Positions 14,219 through 49,569 of a DNA stretch of 64,000 bases are shown piece after piece. The notes beneath the pieces are model-generated. The model saw only the letters and a program-made list of their open reading frames with translations. It made no database searches and was not told where the DNA came from. The stretch's first letter is position 1. Each line of letters begins with the position of its first letter. Source of the stretch: a virus; IMG/VR virus record IMGVR_UViG_3300047509_000037, positions 1 to 64,000 of that record. The stretch is one strand, 5' to 3'. The position numbers and the translations under genes were made by a program.

Positions 14219-16305
14219 TGGGCGACCCCAAGATTGTAGCAGAACTTCGAGCAGCCGCTCAAGCATCTCTCGACCGTGGCTTCTCAATTCTTATTTGTGA
14301 ACCCCACGACAAGAACCCGTTCGTAAAGTACAGCCCACATGCGGTGAACTCCGCAACGAACGATGCGACGATTGCACTCAAGGCATGGGATGACGGGCAC
14401 GAAGCAAACTACGGCGTTGCTGGTGGTAAGAGCAACCTCGCCCTCGTTGACTGTGACCAAGGTCTCGCAGATGAAGTCGCGCTCGACGCGTGGATGAAAA
14501 AGAACAACCTGCCTGAGACGTTCACCGTCCGGTCGGGTCGCACTACGTCTGCCGGATTCCACTTGTACTACAGTGGCACCGTCCCCACGACAGGCTACAA
14601 CATCGACGGCGTCATTGGAGAAATCCGTGGCGTTGGCGCATACGTCGTTGGTCCCGGCTCCATCCACCCCTCCGGCAAGAAATACGAAATCATTCGTGAC
14701 GTTCCGGTTGTCTCCCTGCCGGAGAACTTGAAAGAGATTGCCCAGAAGAAGCACGAGACGATGGCTGCGTACCAGCCGGGAATCGACGAGAAGATTCCAG
14801 AGGGCAACCGCTGGATGCACCTTCAGTCGATGGCGGGAAAACTCCGCAATCTTGGGCTGGACCGCGACGGCATTTACACCGCGCTCAAAAATTTCTGCGT
14901 CAACAATTGCGTTAATGGTGACAACTATCCGAACGAGAAGATTGAACTCCTCGCGGACGCCGCCGACGAAAAATTCAAAGCGAATGTCGCGGGCATTGTC
15001 AGCATCGGGAAGCAGGACACCGAAGCCGACACTACAATTCCTGAGACGCCAATCTCCACGATTGACGGCGATGCTCTCGGAGACCTAAGCCTTGCGCTCA
15101 CCAACGGGACATTCATCCCGGCAGGGTTTGCTCGTGCGTCTCTGAAGGCACTCGCTGGCGCGATGCTCGACGACAACATCGGATTCCCCGGAGAACCCAG
15201 CCTACACATGCGGCACTGGAATGCGCTCATCTCATCTCGCCCAGAGATGGGAAAGGGCGAAGCCTGGAAGCGCATCATGTCTTTCATGGCACCGCTTGCG
15301 GAGCAATGCGAAATCATTTTTCCGAAGGGCGGCTTCTTCTCCTCCGGCGAACACGCCATCAAGACTCTCGCAGCCAATGACGGCAAGGCTCACCTTGCGT
15401 ACTTCGACGAAATGCGAAACCTGTTCGAGAAGGGCAACTCCAGCGGGTCAACGCTGTTTGCCAAGCTGCTCGAACTCTACGAACAGAAGCAGGGCGGCGT
15501 CGGCAGTCTGACGCACAACGCGGCGATGTTTGAGAACGTATCGCTCTCTATGACGGGCGGCTTCACTCTCGACGGCTTCGAGCGTGCGACATCCGGTAAG
15601 GGTGTTGGCGGCGACGGATTCCTGTCGCGTATGGTGCTGGAGTATTCCGGCGGCGTCAACTACCACGGTGATTGGGATGACCTTGACGCCCAGAAGGTGA
15701 ACGCGGCTGTCGCTGCAATCAAGGACGCTGTCGTGTGGCTTCGCAACTATAAGGGAGAACACAAAGGCGAACGCTTCGTTCCTGTGGAAGACTTCGACGC
15801 GAAGGCCCTCCGCATGGACTTCCAGAAGTGGCTCAAACAGCAAAAGGAAATCATTGAGAAGAACACTCCCGGCGCATCCTATGCGGCTCGTCTGGAGTCA
15901 CACTTCAAGCGCGACTTGCTCATCCGAGTTGCCTTCACCCCGGAGAAGAAGATTACCGGGAAGCTGACGCAGAAGGCAATTGATTGGGCGAAACACCAGT
16001 TGAAACTCCGATGCGAACTCTGGACGGTGGACCGGGGCGGCGACGTTCAACAAGCCGAACTGAAAATCGTCAAAGCCGTAAGAGAAAAGGGTCCGCTCAC
16101 CAAGACTGAACTTCAAAAGTTCACAAACGCAGCGAAGGGCGCAGGCGGCTTCGATGCGTGGAACCGAGCACTCACCAGTGTTACTCGCGCTGGTCAAATC
16201 GTTCTGATGCCGTACAAGAGTCAACGCGGCAAGGAAGTGTTCGGGTTCGACGGAATGTTCTGGAGTAAGAACAAAGGCACTTGGCTACCGGAGATTGATT
16301 TATGA
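14215..16305 (+). CDS. Bifunctional primase-polymerase (Prim-Pol) fused to a DUF3987-like helicase domain
   Basis: ANYGV, LVDCD, GFHLYY, YVVGPGSIHPSG, PriCT-like IPEGNR; degenerate P-loop SRPEMGKG, YFDEM, GFLSR. Confidence 0.85.
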   Translation: MMGDPKIVAELRAAAQASLDRGFSILICEPHDKNPFVKYSPHAVNSATNDATIALKAWDDGHEANYGVAGGKSNLALVDCDQGLADEVALDAWMKKNNLPETFTVRSGRTTSAGFHLYYSGTVPTTGYNIDGVIGEIRGVGAYVVGPGSIHPSGKKYEIIRDVPVVSLPENLKEIAQKKHETMAAYQPGIDEKIPEGNRWMHLQSMAGKLRNLGLDRDGIYTALKNFCVNNCVNGDNYPNEKIELLADAADEKFKANVAGIVSIGKQDTEADTTIPETPISTIDGDALGDLSLALTNGTFIPAGFARASLKALAGAMLDDNIGFPGEPSLHMRHWNALISSRPEMGKGEAWKRIMSFMAPLAEQCEIIFPKGGFFSSGEHAIKTLAANDGKAHLAYFDEMRNLFEKGNSSGSTLFAKLLELYEQKQGGVGSLTHNAAMFENVSLSMTGGFTLDGFERATSGKGVGGDGFLSRMVLEYSGGVNYHGDWDDLDAQKVNAAVAAIKDAVVWLRNYKGEHKGERFVPVEDFDAKALRMDFQKWLKQQKEIIEKNTPGASYAARLESHFKRDLLIRVAFTPEKKITGKLTQKAIDWAKHQLKLRCELWTVDRGGDVQQAELKIVKAVREKGPLTKTELQKFTNAAKGAGGFDAWNRALTSVTRAGQIVLMPYKSQRGKEVFGFDGMFWSKNKGTWLPEIDL

Positions 16306-16526: not shown

Positions 16527-18614
16527 ATGAAGAAACTTTGGTTGGATTTTGAAACGCGGTCCTTCATCGACCTGAAGGACTGCGGGCTTGACAAGTACGC
16601 GAAAGATGTCACGACTGAAGTGCTCATGCTTGCGTGGGCGTTCGACGACGATGCGGTCAACCTCTGGTTGCCGTGTCTCGGAGAGCCTATGCCCGAAGCA
16701 CTCAAAGCGGGGTTGGAAGACCCCGACGTGATGAAGATGGCGTGGAACTACAACTTCGAGAAAGACATCTTCCAGTATCGCGTGGGAATCATCATCCCGC
16801 AGGCACAGTGGTTTGACCCCAGCGTGCTCTGTGCGTACATGTCCCTGCCTGTCGGCTTGGACCGCGCCGCGAATGCGCTCAACATCGACATTGAGTTGAA
16901 GAAGACTGTTATCACTGGCAAAAATAAGCCTGTGAAGCTATTTTCGGAGCCGTCGAAGCGAACGAAGACGTTCCTCAAAAAGAATCCGGGGATGCCGGAG
17001 TTCTACTACAAAGATTGGAACTCGGACCCAGAGAAGTGGCAGGAGTTCTGCGATTATTGTAAGCAGGACGTTGTGGCAGAACGTGCCGTGTGGTATGGCG
17101 CGGTCGCACTCAATTGCCCCATCACTGAGGAGGAAACTCGTGCGTGGCTGCTCGACCAGCGCATGAACGACACGGGCGTCTACATCGACACGCAGTTCGT
17201 CGCCAACGCGAAGAACATCGCTATCGTCGAAGCCGACGGTCTCGTGAAAGAGACGAAGGACATCACGGGGCTGGAGAACCCGAACTCCCCGAAGCAACTG
17301 AAGGAATGGTTGCAAGCGAGGAAGTATCCGTTCAACTCGCTCGACAAGGCGCACGTTGAGGAAGCCCTGAAAGAAAAAGGGCATCTCTGCCTGCCGCCAC
17401 TTGTCGTTGACGTTCTAGACCTGAAACAAAAACTCGGCGGGTCCGCGTACAAGAAATTGCAGACCATCGAAGACCGCATCGGCAGCGACAGCCGACTGCG
17501 TGACCAGTTCGTCTACCACGGTGCTCACACCGGACGGTGGTCTGGACGCGGCGTGCAGTTACAGAACTTGTTCAAGCCGAGCAAAGATGTCAGCACGTTG
17601 CGTGACCCAATCGTCAACGCAATTCGCGGCAACTCGCTCGACCTCGAACTCATCGTTTCGGAGTACAACAAATCCGTCGCGGAGTTCAACGCGAAGGAAC
17701 CCGACGCGAAAAAACATAAGAAGCCCATCAAGGGCGTCACGACGATGCAGGCGGTCGCAGGCACGATTCGCGCCGCATTCATCCCGACGCCGGGATACAA
17801 ATTCTCCGTAAGCGATTTGGCACAGATTGAGTCCCGCGTTCTCGCGGCTCTCGCTGGTTGTCAGACGATGATTGATGCCTATGCGAAAGGTCTCGACCTT
17901 TACAAAGACATCATGTCGTTCCTGCTCAACAAGCCATACGACACGATTACCAGCGCAGAGCGTGCCGACGGCAAGGTCATCATCCTTGGTTGCGGCTTCG
18001 GCATGGGCTGGGAGAAATTCATTGACTACGCGGCAACGTTCGGTGTTACACTGGACGAGAAGACGGCGAAGACCTACGTCAACGCCTTCCGCGAGAAGTA
18101 CAGCGAGATTCCGGCATACTGGAAGGCTCTCGACAAGGCTTGTGTCACAGCGACGAAGCTGAACATCTGCGTCTACGTCAAAGGCGTGGTCGTCGATGGG
18201 CGCAATCCTGAAATGCTCAAAATCAAATTGCCGTCCCAACGGTGCTTGCATTATCTGCATCCGAAAGTGACGCAAGAGATGACTGAGTGGGGCGCGGTTC
18301 GTGAGGGAGTCTCTTACGAAGCGTTCGACGAGAAAGGTCTTCAACTCAAGCGGCTCTACGGCGGACTCATCTGCGAAAACGTTGTGCAGGCTGTCGCACG
18401 CGACATCCTACTCAACGGAATGTTTGAAGCAGAGAAGGTCGGCTTCAGAATCGTAATGACAATTCACGACGAAGTGGTGGGAGAGTCACCGCTCACTTCT
18501 CCGCTCACGTTCAAGGACATGGAACACGCCATGACACGAACGCCTGAGTGGGCAGAGGGCATGGGGTTCGTTCTCGCTGCGGAAGGATATGACTGTGCTT
18601 ACTACCGAAAGTAA
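16527..18614 (+). CDS. Family A DNA polymerase (phage type)
   Basis: Exonuclease LDFET, TGRWSG, motif A DLAQIESR, motif B RADGKVIILGCGFG, motif C TIHDE. Confidence 0.95.
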   Translation: MKKLWLDFETRSFIDLKDCGLDKYAKDVTTEVLMLAWAFDDDAVNLWLPCLGEPMPEALKAGLEDPDVMKMAWNYNFEKDIFQYRVGIIIPQAQWFDPSVLCAYMSLPVGLDRAANALNIDIELKKTVITGKNKPVKLFSEPSKRTKTFLKKNPGMPEFYYKDWNSDPEKWQEFCDYCKQDVVAERAVWYGAVALNCPITEEETRAWLLDQRMNDTGVYIDTQFVANAKNIAIVEADGLVKETKDITGLENPNSPKQLKEWLQARKYPFNSLDKAHVEEALKEKGHLCLPPLVVDVLDLKQKLGGSAYKKLQTIEDRIGSDSRLRDQFVYHGAHTGRWSGRGVQLQNLFKPSKDVSTLRDPIVNAIRGNSLDLELIVSEYNKSVAEFNAKEPDAKKHKKPIKGVTTMQAVAGTIRAAFIPTPGYKFSVSDLAQIESRVLAALAGCQTMIDAYAKGLDLYKDIMSFLLNKPYDTITSAERADGKVIILGCGFGMGWEKFIDYAATFGVTLDEKTAKTYVNAFREKYSEIPAYWKALDKACVTATKLNICVYVKGVVVDGRNPEMLKIKLPSQRCLHYLHPKVTQEMTEWGAVREGVSYEAFDEKGLQLKRLYGGLICENVVQAVARDILLNGMFEAEKVGFRIVMTIHDEVVGESPLTSPLTFKDMEHAMTRTPEWAEGMGFVLAAEGYDCAYYRK

Positions 18615-19569: not shown

Positions 19570-19975
19570 CAACTAGTTGTGCCGAGCCTTTCTAGTAGGC
19601 ACATGCCGCGACGATTTACGCACGTATGAAGCGCAGGCTTCTGTTGTCGGACGCGGGTTCGACTCCCGCCGCCTCCACCAAGAGCACCAATAATTCCGAC
19701 GGCACCCTTCAGAGGGGACTCGCCGCGAGTATAGAGGGATTTCTGAATTGGTGTTCTTGACGGGGGCGTCATGGTTTCGACGGCGGCTGATGCAGGCGGG
19801 GACGTGCCGGGGTGCTGTGGCTCACCGACCGAAAGGTTAGAGCGCAAGAACGAGTTGCGCCAACGAGACATCAGAAAAAACACTTGCTAAGACTAACACT
19901 CTTGCAATGGGCGCTGCCGCTGGTCGGTAGTTCTCACGCGGCTTGGTCCCCACCGTGTCAAATAACGGGGACACT
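19570..19975 (+). ncRNA. ssrA: Circularly permuted (two-piece) tmRNA
   Basis: Acceptor piece ending GGACGCGGGTTCGACTCCCGCCGCCTCCACCA (19680) lies upstream of the conventional 5' end GGGGGCGTCATGGTTTCGAC (19762). G3:U70 pair present. Tag ORF 19886-19930 reads AKTNTLAMGAAAGR*. Outer boundaries approximate. Confidence 0.85.
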
Positions 19976-19994
19976 TTTTCTCAGGAGAACCAAC

Positions 19995-20261
19995 ATGAGC
20001 AAAGAATCGACATCCGTCAGCGTGGGCTTTCCGCTGGCAAGCATTCTCACCGTCATCTTCGTCATTGCGAAGTTGATGGGCACCGTGGCGTGGTCTTGGT
20101 GGTGGGTGTTCTCACCGCTGTGGATTAGCGCCCTTCTCGGCATCGGTGTCTTCGTCATCATCATCATCATGGTCGTGGCGGCAATCATCGCCGTCATCGC
20201 CGCAATTCTCGACAAGTTCACGGGCACACGCTGTTGTGGAACACCGGGGAAATCTCGGTGA
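19995..20261 (+). CDS. Small membrane protein (WSWWWVFSPLW type)
   Basis: AGGAG RBS; two hydrophobic helices; motif common in phage membrane proteins. Confidence 0.7.
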   Translation: MSKESTSVSVGFPLASILTVIFVIAKLMGTVAWSWWWVFSPLWISALLGIGVFVIIIIMVVAAIIAVIAAILDKFTGTRCCGTPGKSR

Positions 20262-46197: not shown

Positions 46198-46575
46198 ATG
46201 GCAACTTCAAAAACCAAAACCGGAGCCACACTCGTCTCGACCATCGGCGGTCGTGTCAAGTATCGCTTCACTTCCATCCTGATGAAGCAGGTCCAAAGCA
46301 GATACGCCTACTTCGCAACCAAGAACGAGATTTTCTCGCTCATCAACAGCCTGTTCCGCACGGAAGTCGCTGAGTTCCCGACGATTGTTTACACCGGGAC
46401 GCAGGGTCGCACGACCTACAACGCCCGCAAGAACAGCTACGGTGGATTCAGCATCGGCTGTCAAGACTTCGACCGCAACACGGTTCGCGCTATCGCAGCC
46501 AGCGTCGGTCACTCGAAGTCATTCATCAACGCGTACCTGCCCCGGTTGGCGAAAGCCGCTGCCGCTGGTCGCTAG
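46198..46575 (+). CDS. Hypothetical protein ending AAAAGR
   Basis: GAGGAGG RBS; C-terminus matches the end of the tmRNA tag. Confidence 0.7.
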   Translation: MATSKTKTGATLVSTIGGRVKYRFTSILMKQVQSRYAYFATKNEIFSLINSLFRTEVAEFPTIVYTGTQGRTTYNARKNSYGGFSIGCQDFDRNTVRAIAASVGHSKSFINAYLPRLAKAAAAGR

Positions 46576-46919: not shown

Positions 46920-47012
46920 TCCCTTCGAGGGGCGTGGTTCCTCACGAGATGGGGACTAACGCGGAGGATGCGAGCCTCCCGCCACATTGTTGTTTGATTC
47001 AGGAGAGTTCAC

Positions 47013-47468
47013 ATGGCTCGTGCAGGAAAGAAAGACGTTCTCGCCGCAGGCGGGAGCAAGATGGTCATCGCAGGCGGCATTGGAGAGAGCGACCCGCTAC
47101 GCAACGTATCGAAGGAAGGGCGTGACGACACACCGATTCCAGCGTTCGAGAAACCTGTCGAACCCAAGATGGAGTTCATCCCCAAGAACGGTCACATCCT
47201 CGTTCGCCGCGACACCCCGGTCGAAGCGAAGGGTCTGGTCGAACTGGTGCAGGACGAAGCCGCGAAAGAAAAACCTGCTCAGGGCATCGTGCTTGAGACG
47301 AATTGTGTTGACTACGTCGTCGGCACTCGTGTAGTGTTTGGAAAGTATTCGGGCACTGAGTTCAAGCTGAACGGCGAGTTGCTGCTCATCATGCGTGACG
47401 AAGACGTTCAAGGGCTGCTCGTGCAGGCGGAACCCGACAGCGAAGTAGAAATCGAAATCCTTCCGTAG
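47013..47468 (+). CDS. groES: Co-chaperonin GroES with N-terminal extension
   Basis: FIPKNGHILVRR...AKEKPAQGIV...VVFGKYSGTEFKLNGELLLIMRDEDV. Confidence 0.85.
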   Translation: MARAGKKDVLAAGGSKMVIAGGIGESDPLRNVSKEGRDDTPIPAFEKPVEPKMEFIPKNGHILVRRDTPVEAKGLVELVQDEAAKEKPAQGIVLETNCVDYVVGTRVVFGKYSGTEFKLNGELLLIMRDEDVQGLLVQAEPDSEVEIEILP

Positions 47469-47479
47469 AGGAGTCCAAC

Positions 47480-48226
47480 ATGGAGAAAGCTGCAATCGTC
47501 GGAGACGCGGACGTATCTCGCGCAACACACGTCCGCCGCCGCATCACCAATCTGGTCAAGGCAGCCAACACGAGCGACTTTGACCTTGCCGAATTGTTCC
47601 ACGAGTCAAAGAAGAACCAGTACCCCGCGATGTGGGGCTTCGAGTCCTTCTCTGCTTACGGCAAGGCTCTGGCGAAGGACTACAACTTCAAGTGGACGAA
47701 GGTCTACTACCTGACTCGCATTGCTGAGAACATGGAAGCCGCGAAGCTGGAGCGTTCGCAGTACGAACCCGTTGGCAAGACCAAGCTGCGAATGATTTCC
47801 CGGCTGAAGCCTGACACCGAGTTCAACGGCGTCTCCGTCTCTATCCTGATTCGGGAACTGACGCTGAAGGCTGGGCAGATGTCACCAGACGAAGTCCAGT
47901 ACGAGGTCGATAAGATTCTCGGACTGACGGAAGATGAGTCGATGTCATGGCTCAACATCCGTGTGAAGAAGATGGCGAAGGACAACGTCATCATGCCGTC
48001 CATCGCTCTCGCAAAGAAACACATCGGGAGCGTTGGGCAGGACGAAGAAGGACAGTCGCAGGACGCAAGTGAAGGTCGCTGTCTCGAACTCATCTGTGCG
48101 AACTTCCTCGCGGACCCGAACTACAACAACGAGCAACCGCCGGATACCGCCGCGAAGATTCAAGCAGCCGCCGATGCAACCGAGGCGGCGCAAGAGGAAA
48201 ACGAACAACCAACCAACGACGAATAA
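47480..48226 (+). CDS. Hypothetical DNA-binding-type protein
   Basis: WGFESFSAY, VGKTKLRMI, RCLELICANFLA. Confidence 0.65.
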   Translation: MEKAAIVGDADVSRATHVRRRITNLVKAANTSDFDLAELFHESKKNQYPAMWGFESFSAYGKALAKDYNFKWTKVYYLTRIAENMEAAKLERSQYEPVGKTKLRMISRLKPDTEFNGVSVSILIRELTLKAGQMSPDEVQYEVDKILGLTEDESMSWLNIRVKKMAKDNVIMPSIALAKKHIGSVGQDEEGQSQDASEGRCLELICANFLADPNYNNEQPPDTAAKIQAAADATEAAQEENEQPTNDE

Positions 48227-48239
48227 CTGGAGGGTGCCA

Positions 48240-49280
48240 ATGCCATTCCGAAAGCTGGACATCACCCGCAAGACTGGTGAGGCAACCGCTCTGGCAACGA
48301 AACTCGAAGGACTCATCGTGGGACAGCGGGCACCTAAAGACGCTCTCCTGTCGGTCGTAGACCGCATCCAAAGTGGGTTCTATGACAAGACGAGACCCGT
48401 CGGCATCTTCCTCTTTCTCGGACCCACCGGGACGGGAAAGACCGGAGTAGCCGAGGCGTTCACGATGGGTCTGTTCAATAACCCGAAGATGTTGATGAAG
48501 GTGGATTGCGCAGAGTTCCAGCACTCGCACGAGATTGCGAAGCTAGTTGGCAGCCCTCCCGGTTATCTGGGACACCGCGAGACGCATCCGTACTTCACCA
48601 ACAATTCGCTCAAGGCGCATCGCACCGATGCCTTTCCATTCACGCCGATTCTGTTCGACGAGATTGAGAAGGCAAGCGACTCACTCTGGAATCTCCTGCT
48701 GGGTATTCTGGATAAGGGCACGCTCACGACGGGCGCCAACGAAGTCGTGGACATGAAGCCCACAATCATTTTGATGACCAGCAACGTCGGGGCGTCGGAG
48801 ATGTCGGAAGACAAGTCTCTGGGCTTCGTCGGCAAGACCACAGTTGATGATGCCAAGCTGGAGTCAATCGCTCTGGCGGCGGCACGGCGGAAGTTCTCGC
48901 CGGAGTTCCTGAACCGCATCGACTACATTTTGAACTTCAAGACTCTGACTGAAGACGAACTCAAACAGGTTCTCGCGCTTCAGTTGCAATTGCTTCAAGA
49001 CCGCATCGTCGTTGACTCGAAGGTGCTCTTTGAACTGCGTGTCTCCAGCCGGGGACTCGCGCAATTGCTGGTGGATGGTTATGACCGTCGCTACAACGCA
49101 CGGCATCTCAAGCGGACGATAGACAAACACATCTCCGCTCCGCTAACGAGTCTTGTCGCCACGGGGCAGATAATGAACGAAGACGTTGTCATCGTTGACT
49201 ACCTCGAAGGCGACTGGCGATATGTGGCAGTACCGAGGGCGAATGCTCCCCAAGGCGATTTCTCAGGCAGTCTACCGTAG
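48240..49280 (+). CDS. Single-domain Clp/Hsp100 ATPase (ClpA/B/C D2-like) with LGF loop
   Basis: IVGQ, RPVGIFLFLGPTGTGKT, GSPPGYLG pore loop, LFDEIEKA, MTSNVG, SLGF, FSPEFLNRID, YNARHL. Confidence 0.9.
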   Translation: MPFRKLDITRKTGEATALATKLEGLIVGQRAPKDALLSVVDRIQSGFYDKTRPVGIFLFLGPTGTGKTGVAEAFTMGLFNNPKMLMKVDCAEFQHSHEIAKLVGSPPGYLGHRETHPYFTNNSLKAHRTDAFPFTPILFDEIEKASDSLWNLLLGILDKGTLTTGANEVVDMKPTIILMTSNVGASEMSEDKSLGFVGKTTVDDAKLESIALAAARRKFSPEFLNRIDYILNFKTLTEDELKQVLALQLQLLQDRIVVDSKVLFELRVSSRGLAQLLVDGYDRRYNARHLKRTIDKHISAPLTSLVATGQIMNEDVVIVDYLEGDWRYVAVPRANAPQGDFSGSLP

Positions 49281-49569
49281 AGACGGCTGGAAATGTCGTT
49301 CCTGCAACAACCGCAATGGGCTTGACCCGCACCACGTCATATTCCAAAGCGCAGGCGGACCCGACACACTGGACAACCTGCTGGCGCTCTGCCGCAAATG
49401 CCACGATGACATTCACGCCGGGAGACTGGTGCTGGAAGTCCTTCGTAAGCTGGAGAGCAACCTTGACGTTCGATTCTGGAAGCGTGCTGCGTGGGAGATT
49501 TACAGGAGTGTAAATGAAGACTTGCACCAAGTGTCAAACATCGAAGAACCCGAAAACGGATTTTCATAA
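49243..49569 (+). CDS. HNH endonuclease
   Basis: RRDGWKCRSC...PHHVIFQSAGG...NLLALCRKCH. Confidence 0.8.
   Translation: MLPKAISQAVYRRDGWKCRSCNNRNGLDPHHVIFQSAGGPDTLDNLLALCRKCHDDIHAGRLVLEVLRKLESNLDVRFWKRAAWEIYRSVNEDLHQVSNIEEPENGFS

Follow-up and report, generated by a model that had tools for sequence, protein, structure and literature searches.

A phage-borne single-ring Clp ATPase of the ClpC D2 type with a candidate ClpP-docking loop, from a family native to Acidobacteriota

What could a Clp-type ATPase do in a phage that carries no ClpP? This question is raised by positions 47013-49280 of a soil phage, the virus record IMGVR_UViG_3300047509_000037, which is 96,151 bp long, with a CheckV completeness estimate of 100%, and whose first 64 kb (64,000 nucleotides, hereafter the window) were analysed here. 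The locus encodes a GroES homologue, a 248-residue protein and a Clp/Hsp100 ATPase. A first-pass annotation, made from the sequence of the window, had proposed that the ATPase and GroES, together with a transfer-messenger RNA (tmRNA) and proteins with GRKIR or AAAGR tails, form one phage-run proteostasis circuit. We favour a different explanation, with a probability of roughly 0.6: that the ATPase is a minimal ClpC-type, ATP-driven unfoldase docking on the ClpP of the host, and is the phage copy of a single-ring family of Acidobacteriota.

The product of the gene at 48240..49280 (+ strand; 346 residues) consists solely of a D2 module, which is complete and resembles that of ClpC. Pfam identified AAA_2 (3.8e-33) and ClpB_D2-small (6.7e-11) and no other domain, and in solved structures its counterparts are residues ~497-804 in ClpC and ~564-860 in ClpB; by both approaches the N-domain, the D1 ring and the M-domain are missing. 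Among solved relatives, ClpC from S. aureus (2e-59) and B. subtilis ranks first, followed by ClpB and then ClpA, the aligned part being always D2. The ClpB, ClpA, ClpV, ClpK and ClpG models of NCBIfam are matched only over their last ~300 positions and far under their cut-offs (the best score, 229 bits against a ClpB cut-off of 1232, covers the D2 part only), and of the 764 positions of PHROG 4871, the family of full-length phage Clp, only 456-753 are covered by the match. The homologous open reading frames (ORFs) are 335-463 residues long.

All catalytic motifs and the pore loop are present, and are invariant or nearly so in the 40 homologues used for the structure model and in a family alignment of 111 distinct D2-only proteins, both viral and cellular. 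Walker A (GPTGTGKT, residues 61-68, 48420..48443) has Gly61, Pro62, Thr63, Gly64, Gly66, Lys67 and Thr68 invariant in the 40 homologues, as are Asp140 and Glu141 of Walker B (48657..48662), which aligns with DEIEK of ClpC. The pore-1 loop Gly108-Tyr109-Leu110-Gly111 (48561..48572) is conserved in 111, 110, 106 and 111 of the 111 members, respectively, and the arginine finger, Arg226 (48915..48917), in all of them. Asn182, which the HMMER alignment places on Asn659 of ClpC, corresponds to sensor-1 and Arg288 to sensor-2; all these elements lie on the + strand. The AlphaFold2 model, built with the 40 homologues, has a pLDDT of 87.6 and a pTM of 0.83, and its best Foldseek matches are ClpC chains from ClpC-ClpP complexes (9a66, 9rai, 9gi1, 8xoo and 9jvp; TMq 0.77-0.78); D2 modules of ClpB are matched in fold as well. 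Domains, alignments and motif conservation thus agree with the initial description of the gene as the second AAA module of ClpA/B/C with an intact GYLG loop.

The protein fits none of the Clp classes with which it was compared. ClpC and ClpA were rejected because it has neither Clp_N nor a D1 AAA+ ring, and ClpB/Hsp104 because it has no M-domain and carries a loop that ClpB is without. ClpX was rejected as well: the NCBIfam ClpX model gives only a fragmentary match (E = 0.0013, against a cut-off of 359 bits), there is no Pfam match to the zinc-binding N-domain (zf-C4_ClpX) in the 346-residue protein, and no ClpX chain is listed among the solved relatives at E <= 1e-10.

The element that would connect this module to ClpP is a short loop after sensor-1. 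Residues 193-196 read SLGF, and the tripeptide Leu194-Gly195-Phe196 (48819..48827, Leu194 starting at nucleotide 48819) is a candidate ClpP-docking motif: in the HMMER alignments it falls on Ala671-Gly672-Phe673 of S. aureus ClpC and on VGF of B. subtilis ClpC, whereas ClpB shows a gap at this position, ClpB-type sequences being devoid of the loop. In the structure of the S. aureus MecA/ClpC/ClpP complex, residues 660-680 of ClpC form the P-loop, whose AGF tip docks into hydrophobic pockets of ClpP, and the substitutions G672D and F673D abolish the interaction (PMC12521514). Within the 111-member alignment the glycine of the tripeptide is invariant, the following residue is phenylalanine in 106 proteins and tyrosine in 5, and the residue before the glycine is in every case hydrophobic (Leu 34, Ile 33, Met 22, Phe 10, others); the surrounding positions, 189-193 and 197-203, are variable. 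Since the tripeptide is maintained while its flanks drift, selection on the tripeptide itself is indicated, which argues for a selected docking function. Residues 191-200 are the weakest internal segment of the AlphaFold2 model (pLDDT 54), a low confidence also found in real P-loops. The motif, as well as its presence in the ClpP partner ClpC and absence from ClpB, had already been noticed in the first-pass annotation; both observations hold, the former for the whole family.

Among known systems the D2 of ClpC (S. aureus, B. subtilis and M. tuberculosis ClpC1) is the closest: it shares 32-37% identity over the whole module and the same fold (TMq 0.78), the same pore loop, catalytic motifs and D2-small domain, and a P-loop at the identical alignment position. 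The phage protein differs from ClpC in having no Clp_N, D1 ring or M-domain, in forming one ring instead of two if it assembles as expected, and in having no known adaptor-binding surface; in phylogenetic trees it belongs to its own family, separate from the D2 modules of two-ring proteins, ClpC included. In overall architecture the closest analogue is ClpX, which likewise belongs to the HCLR clade, has one AAA+ ring and binds ClpP through IGF loops, but ClpX is of another sequence family, whereas the phage module is a ClpA/B/C-type D2 with ClpB_D2-small and without a zinc-binding N-domain. That such a loop is enough to let a ClpB/C-type D2 ring bind ClpP is illustrated by BAP, an engineered ClpB with the P-loop of ClpA for which ClpP-bound entries have been solved (5ofo, 4d2q and 4d2x are among our structure matches); BAP is an artificial two-ring chimera and the phage protein a natural, single-ring one.

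ClpP itself appears to be left to the host. Neither ClpP (PF00574) nor GroEL (PF00118) has a match across the whole 96,151-bp genome, while control genomes matched as expected, so that the absence of both genes, initially stated for the window, extends to the complete record. ClpP was also not found in the closest complete relative (G036). Among the 35 viral records that carry the family, two encode a genuine ClpP (G008, 1.9e-83; G018, 9.1e-77) and four others have weak matches, which are candidate ClpP-like prohead proteases. Neither G008 nor G018 has an AAA_2-type ATPase besides the D2-only protein, an arrangement that fits a ClpP partner but does not prove one. With no ClpP or GroEL in the phage, its Clp and GroES must each find a partner in the host, provided that they act like other members of their families. 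The earlier idea that these proteins are modules plugging into host ClpP and GroEL is in this respect supported, by the loop at the ClpC position and by the missing partners; its extension to a circuit with the tmRNA and the tails is not, as discussed below.

Where does such a protein come from? Because generic patterns retrieved mostly cellular two-ring Clps from IMG/VR and metagenomes, the family was searched with a DNA pattern for a family-specific peptide, EFQHSHEIAK. This pattern occurs in 38 IMG/VR records and in at least 120 species-representative genomes. Among the 80 genomes listed, almost all are metagenome-assembled genomes (MAGs) of Acidobacteriota (Pyrinomonadaceae, Terriglobia, Acidobacteriaceae, Bryobacterales and others), and many of the family-bearing contigs among the matches listed are 0.4-3 Mb long. 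Of 301 Acidobacteriota genomes sampled, 30 contain the exact motif, a figure that sets a minimum for the family; this census covered Acidobacteriota only, and the near-exclusive distribution refers to the matches listed.

The cellular D2-only ORFs are 385-420 residues long, contain the same tripeptide and are present in 1-3 copies per genome. Their neighbours are housekeeping genes, encoding inositol-phosphate synthase, an aminotransferase, glycine-cleavage P protein, a histidine kinase and a DnaJ-domain protein, and no conserved partner gene adjoins them in the loci examined. Five genomes were analysed in detail. Each has 1-3 D2-only genes, whose products are 43-51% identical to the phage protein, whereas the D2 modules of their two-ring Clps (frames of 809-995 residues) reach only 35-38%; two shorter frames of uncertain architecture (284 and 649 residues) reach 40-42%, and genuine ClpP genes are present. 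The cellular D2-only genes often occur as tandem pairs ~1.5 kb apart (L378, L382, L387, L433, L435 and L440; Acidobacteriota and a few other MAGs), in genomes that also have stand-alone Clp_N-domain matches in frames of 164-328 residues and 1-3 ClpP genes. One family member from a Pyrinomonadaceae MAG (P0025, 547 residues) has an internal duplication of ~170 residues, from pore loop to P-loop, with two xGF loops, which may be an assembly artefact or a real repeat.

In the trees, a branch with 98-100% support separates the D2-only proteins from every two-ring D2 module; four seemingly short sequences that fell elsewhere were excluded as long branches or as proteins truncated at contig ends. The cellular clades follow the taxonomy of Acidobacteriota, and viral sequences occupy at least three places, among them the clade of the window (16 viral or metagenomic sequences) and a jumbo-phage clade inside Terriglobia. 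Homologues at 55-87% identity are found on long Logan/JGI contigs. The nearest cultured phages are the Tunturiibacter phages Tunturi_3 (helicase identity 45%) and Tunturi_4 (41%), which infect Acidobacteriota; the syntenic site of Tunturi_3 holds no Clp, and the paper on the Tunturi phages mentions neither Clp, GroES nor tmRNA. The chromosomal family, the tree placement and the kinship with the Tunturi phages together point to a host origin of the phage gene: judged from sequence comparison, the phage clp is a host-derived accessory gene and not a phage invention, and, by the placement of the viral sequences, the family was captured on at least three occasions by phages of Acidobacteriota, which is also the most likely host phylum of the present phage. 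One viral copy (G002, L226:2114-4690, + strand, 858 residues) is interrupted by an intein, with Hint and Hom_end_hint matches at residues ~117-240 and LAGLIDADG_3 at 438-515, inserted after Walker A, near the pore-loop region; an intein in a viral copy suggests that the gene matters to its carrier.

Taking these results together, we infer that the 346-residue protein assembles into a ring, most likely a hexamer, in which the GYLG pore loops would grip polypeptides while the Walker, sensor and arginine-finger sites hydrolyse ATP, and that the flexible hydrophobic-Gly-Phe loops would dock into the hydrophobic pockets of ClpP, which, as the phage has none, would be that of the host. An infecting phage would thereby equip the host protease with an additional activator, of phage origin and probably adaptor-independent: without N- and M-domains, through which MecA- and McsB-type adaptors control ClpC, the usual adaptor control cannot apply. 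Host GroEL would be capped, as a separate activity, by the GroES homologue encoded nearby. That D2 alone could serve as a motor is plausible from work on ClpA, whose D2 ring acts as the main unfoldase and accounts for 80-90% of ATP hydrolysis (PMC7568338).

Several points weigh against this explanation. Docking on ClpP is deduced from sequence and from a monomer model, the loop could bind a partner other than ClpP, and a stable hexamer from a lone D2 module is a predicted step. ClpC needs adaptors and its N- and M-domains for activation. The D2-only genes are not adjacent to clpP in the cellular genomes examined. Since most of the viral records are fragments, only for complete ones can ClpP be firmly said to be absent.

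It is possible, although we consider it unlikely, that the ring works independently of ClpP as an unfoldase or disaggregase, remodelling phage proteins alone or with phage GroES and host GroEL, the loop being a relic or binding something else. This would agree with the position of groES two genes upstream of clp, on the same contigs in the closest subclade, and with the presence among solved relatives of chains of Skd3/human CLPB (7ttr and 7us2), a natural single D2-type module that is active alone. However, Skd3 is a disaggregase with ankyrin repeats, which Pfam does not find in the phage protein, and neither Skd3 nor ClpB has a ClpP-docking loop such as the tripeptide kept in 111 of 111 members amid varying flanks; the M-domain that would be required for DnaK coupling is also missing. 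As for the association of the two genes, GroES was found only in Clp-bearing complete genomes (6 of 13, against 0 of 4 Clp-less ones), but the difference is not significant (Fisher p = 0.24) and 7 of the 13 have no GroES. A coupling of GroES and Clp was rejected on these grounds, adjacency being limited to the closest subclade.

The GroES (Cpn10) homologue (47013..47468, + strand, 151 residues) contains a Pfam Cpn10 domain at residues 56-134 (32.1 bits, cut-off 21.1) and aligns with GroES/Cpn20 chains. Its N-terminal extension, put at ~50 residues in the first-pass annotation, is real: it has ~52 residues (47013-47168), follows an ATG with its own strong ribosome-binding site (AGGAG, 8 nucleotides upstream of 47013), and has no Pfam match. 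Its motif, KKDxLAAG...AGGxGE...D..RN, is conserved in four relatives (Lys7, Asp8, Leu10, Ala11, Gly13, Gly22, Asp27, Arg30, Asn31, Arg37 and others). About 30 database homologues of 142-182 residues carry the extension, many of them on contigs sized like those of the Clp homologues, whereas cellular GroES proteins (95-102 residues) match the domain only; the N-extended form seems to be a small family restricted to this phage group. The mobile-loop region aligns (veakglvelv...ekp), although it is short and without the usual Gly-Gly. GroES genes are not new to phages (PHROG 3188, 'co-chaperonin GroES'), T4 gp31 being a phage co-chaperonin of the GroES type. The likeness to PHROG 3188 is that of a GroES-type lid that would rely on host GroEL; the match is weak (4e-4), and the window protein differs in its conserved extension and variable C-terminal tail.

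Much less probable is that Clp is the dedicated reader of a degradation signal, feeding to host ClpP the products of the tmRNA, whose tag ends in AAAGR, as well as proteins with natural AAAGR ends or GRK[IV]R tails. In favour of this idea, Clp rings without N-domains, such as deletion variants of ClpX and ClpA, can recognise C-terminal degrons with their pore. The tmRNA of the window is located at 19588-20021 and belongs to the permuted family RF04321, which was the model used throughout; matches to RF00023 in viral records were disregarded, all being below the cut-off and mostly short, tRNA-sized stretches. Permuted tmRNA was detected in 12 of 14 complete Clp-bearing genomes (8 of 10 when complete Clp-bearing records are counted), but also in all four complete Clp-less relatives, and it is missing from two records with Clp (G012 and G019). 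Likewise, all seven complete relatives defined by their helicase have the tmRNA and only three of them have Clp. The tmRNA thus occurs in every complete helicase-defined relative whether or not Clp is present, and counts among the core features of this lineage, independent of Clp.

The tag endings differ among the phages with Clp. Endings in AAAGR or AAAAGR were seen only in phages with Clp (the window, G005, G025, G021 and G036), but these five cases are a small set of close kin. Other Clp-bearing phages have tags ending in FAAAA (G009, which shares the synteny and whose Clp is 60% identical), MAAAA (G003 and G018), AAHA (G023 and G029), AGA (G031 and G028) or AGC (G001), and the tags of Clp-less relatives end in LVMA or MLLAA. 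Terminal tails, generalised to G-R-[KRM]-x-R, were counted in the window and in eight complete relatives assembled from fetched pieces. Among the genomes with Clp, the window has five ORFs with such a tail, G036 and G009 four each, G028 two and G039 none; among those without Clp, G050 has three, G051 two, G057 one and G037 none. Tails are therefore found without Clp, and Clp without tails. In some relatives the GR[KR]xR motif lies 2-10 residues from the C-terminus (G037, 14274-15818 and 17327-18436; G028, 88893-89798; examples are ...GRVVRFDEE, ...AGRKFRDE and ...VRGRKFRAAPETEVS), which makes it a near-C-terminal linear motif and not a strict end tag. Two proteins end as the tag does: a 125-residue one encoded two genes upstream of groES (46198-46575, + strand; AKAAAAGR) and a 176-residue one in G036 (84760-85290, - strand; AFAAAAGR).

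Moreover, the bacteria that carry the D2-only family on their chromosomes are not known to have such phage tags. With tmRNA and tails occurring without Clp, the proposed union of Clp, GroES, tmRNA and GRKIR/AAAGR tails in one phage-run circuit is not supported: tmRNA and tails belong to the lineage-wide core, and Clp and GroES are an accessory pair. The first-pass annotation had itself named a lack of co-occurrence as grounds for refutation, and such a lack is what the comparison shows for the tails and the tmRNA. A facultative link within the GR-tag subclade is conceivable. It would be surprising if Clp selected its substrates purely by C-terminal peptides at the pore, with the AAAGR tag as a private degron of the GR-tag subclade; if true, the phage would label the products of stalled ribosomes and also supply their ClpP activator, bypassing the host ClpX/SspB route.

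Least probable of all is that the ring merely occupies the pockets of host ClpP, displacing ClpX, ClpA or ClpC and so shielding phage proteins, since, although a docking loop without a substrate-recognition domain would suit a competitor, a passive plug would not need ATPase and pore-loop residues that are all invariant, and the homologues in uninfected bacteria argue for a productive enzyme.

The arrangement of the locus is consistent with Clp being an accessory gene. The GroES, 248-residue, Clp and HNH genes are tightly packed, all on the + strand. The ATG of clp at 48240 is preceded by a strong GGAGG ribosome-binding site 8 nucleotides upstream; a longer, TTG-initiated frame from 48033 was ruled out as the Clp gene, as the homologues all start at the position of this ATG. 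A small HNH endonuclease gene (49186..49569, + strand; Pfam HNH 9.5e-09) overlaps the 3' end of clp. Relatives were found by an alignment-based helicase scan, a scan with the single helicase protein having found none, and a blastn search of the region against GenBank phages gave no match. Their backbone order is exonuclease ... 248-residue gene - HNH - helicase. Clp lies between the 248-residue gene and HNH only in the window, G036, G009, G005, G025, G015 and G028, and GroES lies upstream of the 248-residue gene only in the five closest of these, with Clp identities of 56-62%. The HNH gene keeps its position in all relatives. At the spot of clp, other relatives have unrelated small ORFs or an endonuclease VII, so that the site looks like an insertion hot spot. 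GroES and Clp of this subclade are accessory genes flanking a backbone gene, with Clp placed between it and HNH.

The 248-residue gene (47480..48226, + strand) has no Pfam family and, by synteny, belongs to this backbone, outside the Clp module. The first-pass annotation had passed over this gene, as it had the host origin of clp. It was considered as a Clp adaptor and rejected, being present, and followed by HNH, in relatives with and without Clp. Its atlas neighbours are viral hypothetical proteins, and it shows a weak structural likeness to DUF222-HNH and ParB-HTH proteins (TM 0.42-0.49); possibly, the 248-residue and HNH genes make up a single nuclease system whose two halves were separated by the insertion of Clp. 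Further upstream, at ~46965-47000, the stretch that separates a 94-residue gene from the ribosome-binding site of groES contains a GGAGG...CCTCC hairpin and, after it, a T-rich run, a possible terminator or attenuator ahead of the GroES-Clp block. No RNA record containing this stretch was listed.

To our knowledge, the ClpP partners characterised so far are only ClpX or the two-ring ClpA, ClpC and ClpE. The D2-only architecture has no curated family in Pfam, NCBIfam or PHROGs, the homologues bear generic database names ('AAA family ATPase', 'Clp protease ATP-binding subunit ClpA/ClpB'), and the literature that was searched yielded no account of a natural ClpP partner made of D2 alone, nor of this phage module. 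The protein is not categorically new; what is new is a natural single-ring protein of the ClpA/B/C D2 type with a loop of the ClpP-docking type, native to Acidobacteriota and repeatedly captured by phages. For the window, the result is that three seemingly joint features (Clp/GroES, tmRNA and GR-tails) come apart. For the enzyme family, a natural ClpC-type D2 ring with an invariant docking tripeptide would be a minimal ClpP activator, and would directly test the need for a D1 ring, an N-domain and an M-domain. The family is common in Acidobacteriota, a dominant and little-studied soil phylum, often in 2-3 copies, and its repeated capture by phages suggests that reprogramming ClpP proteolysis of the host pays off in infection.

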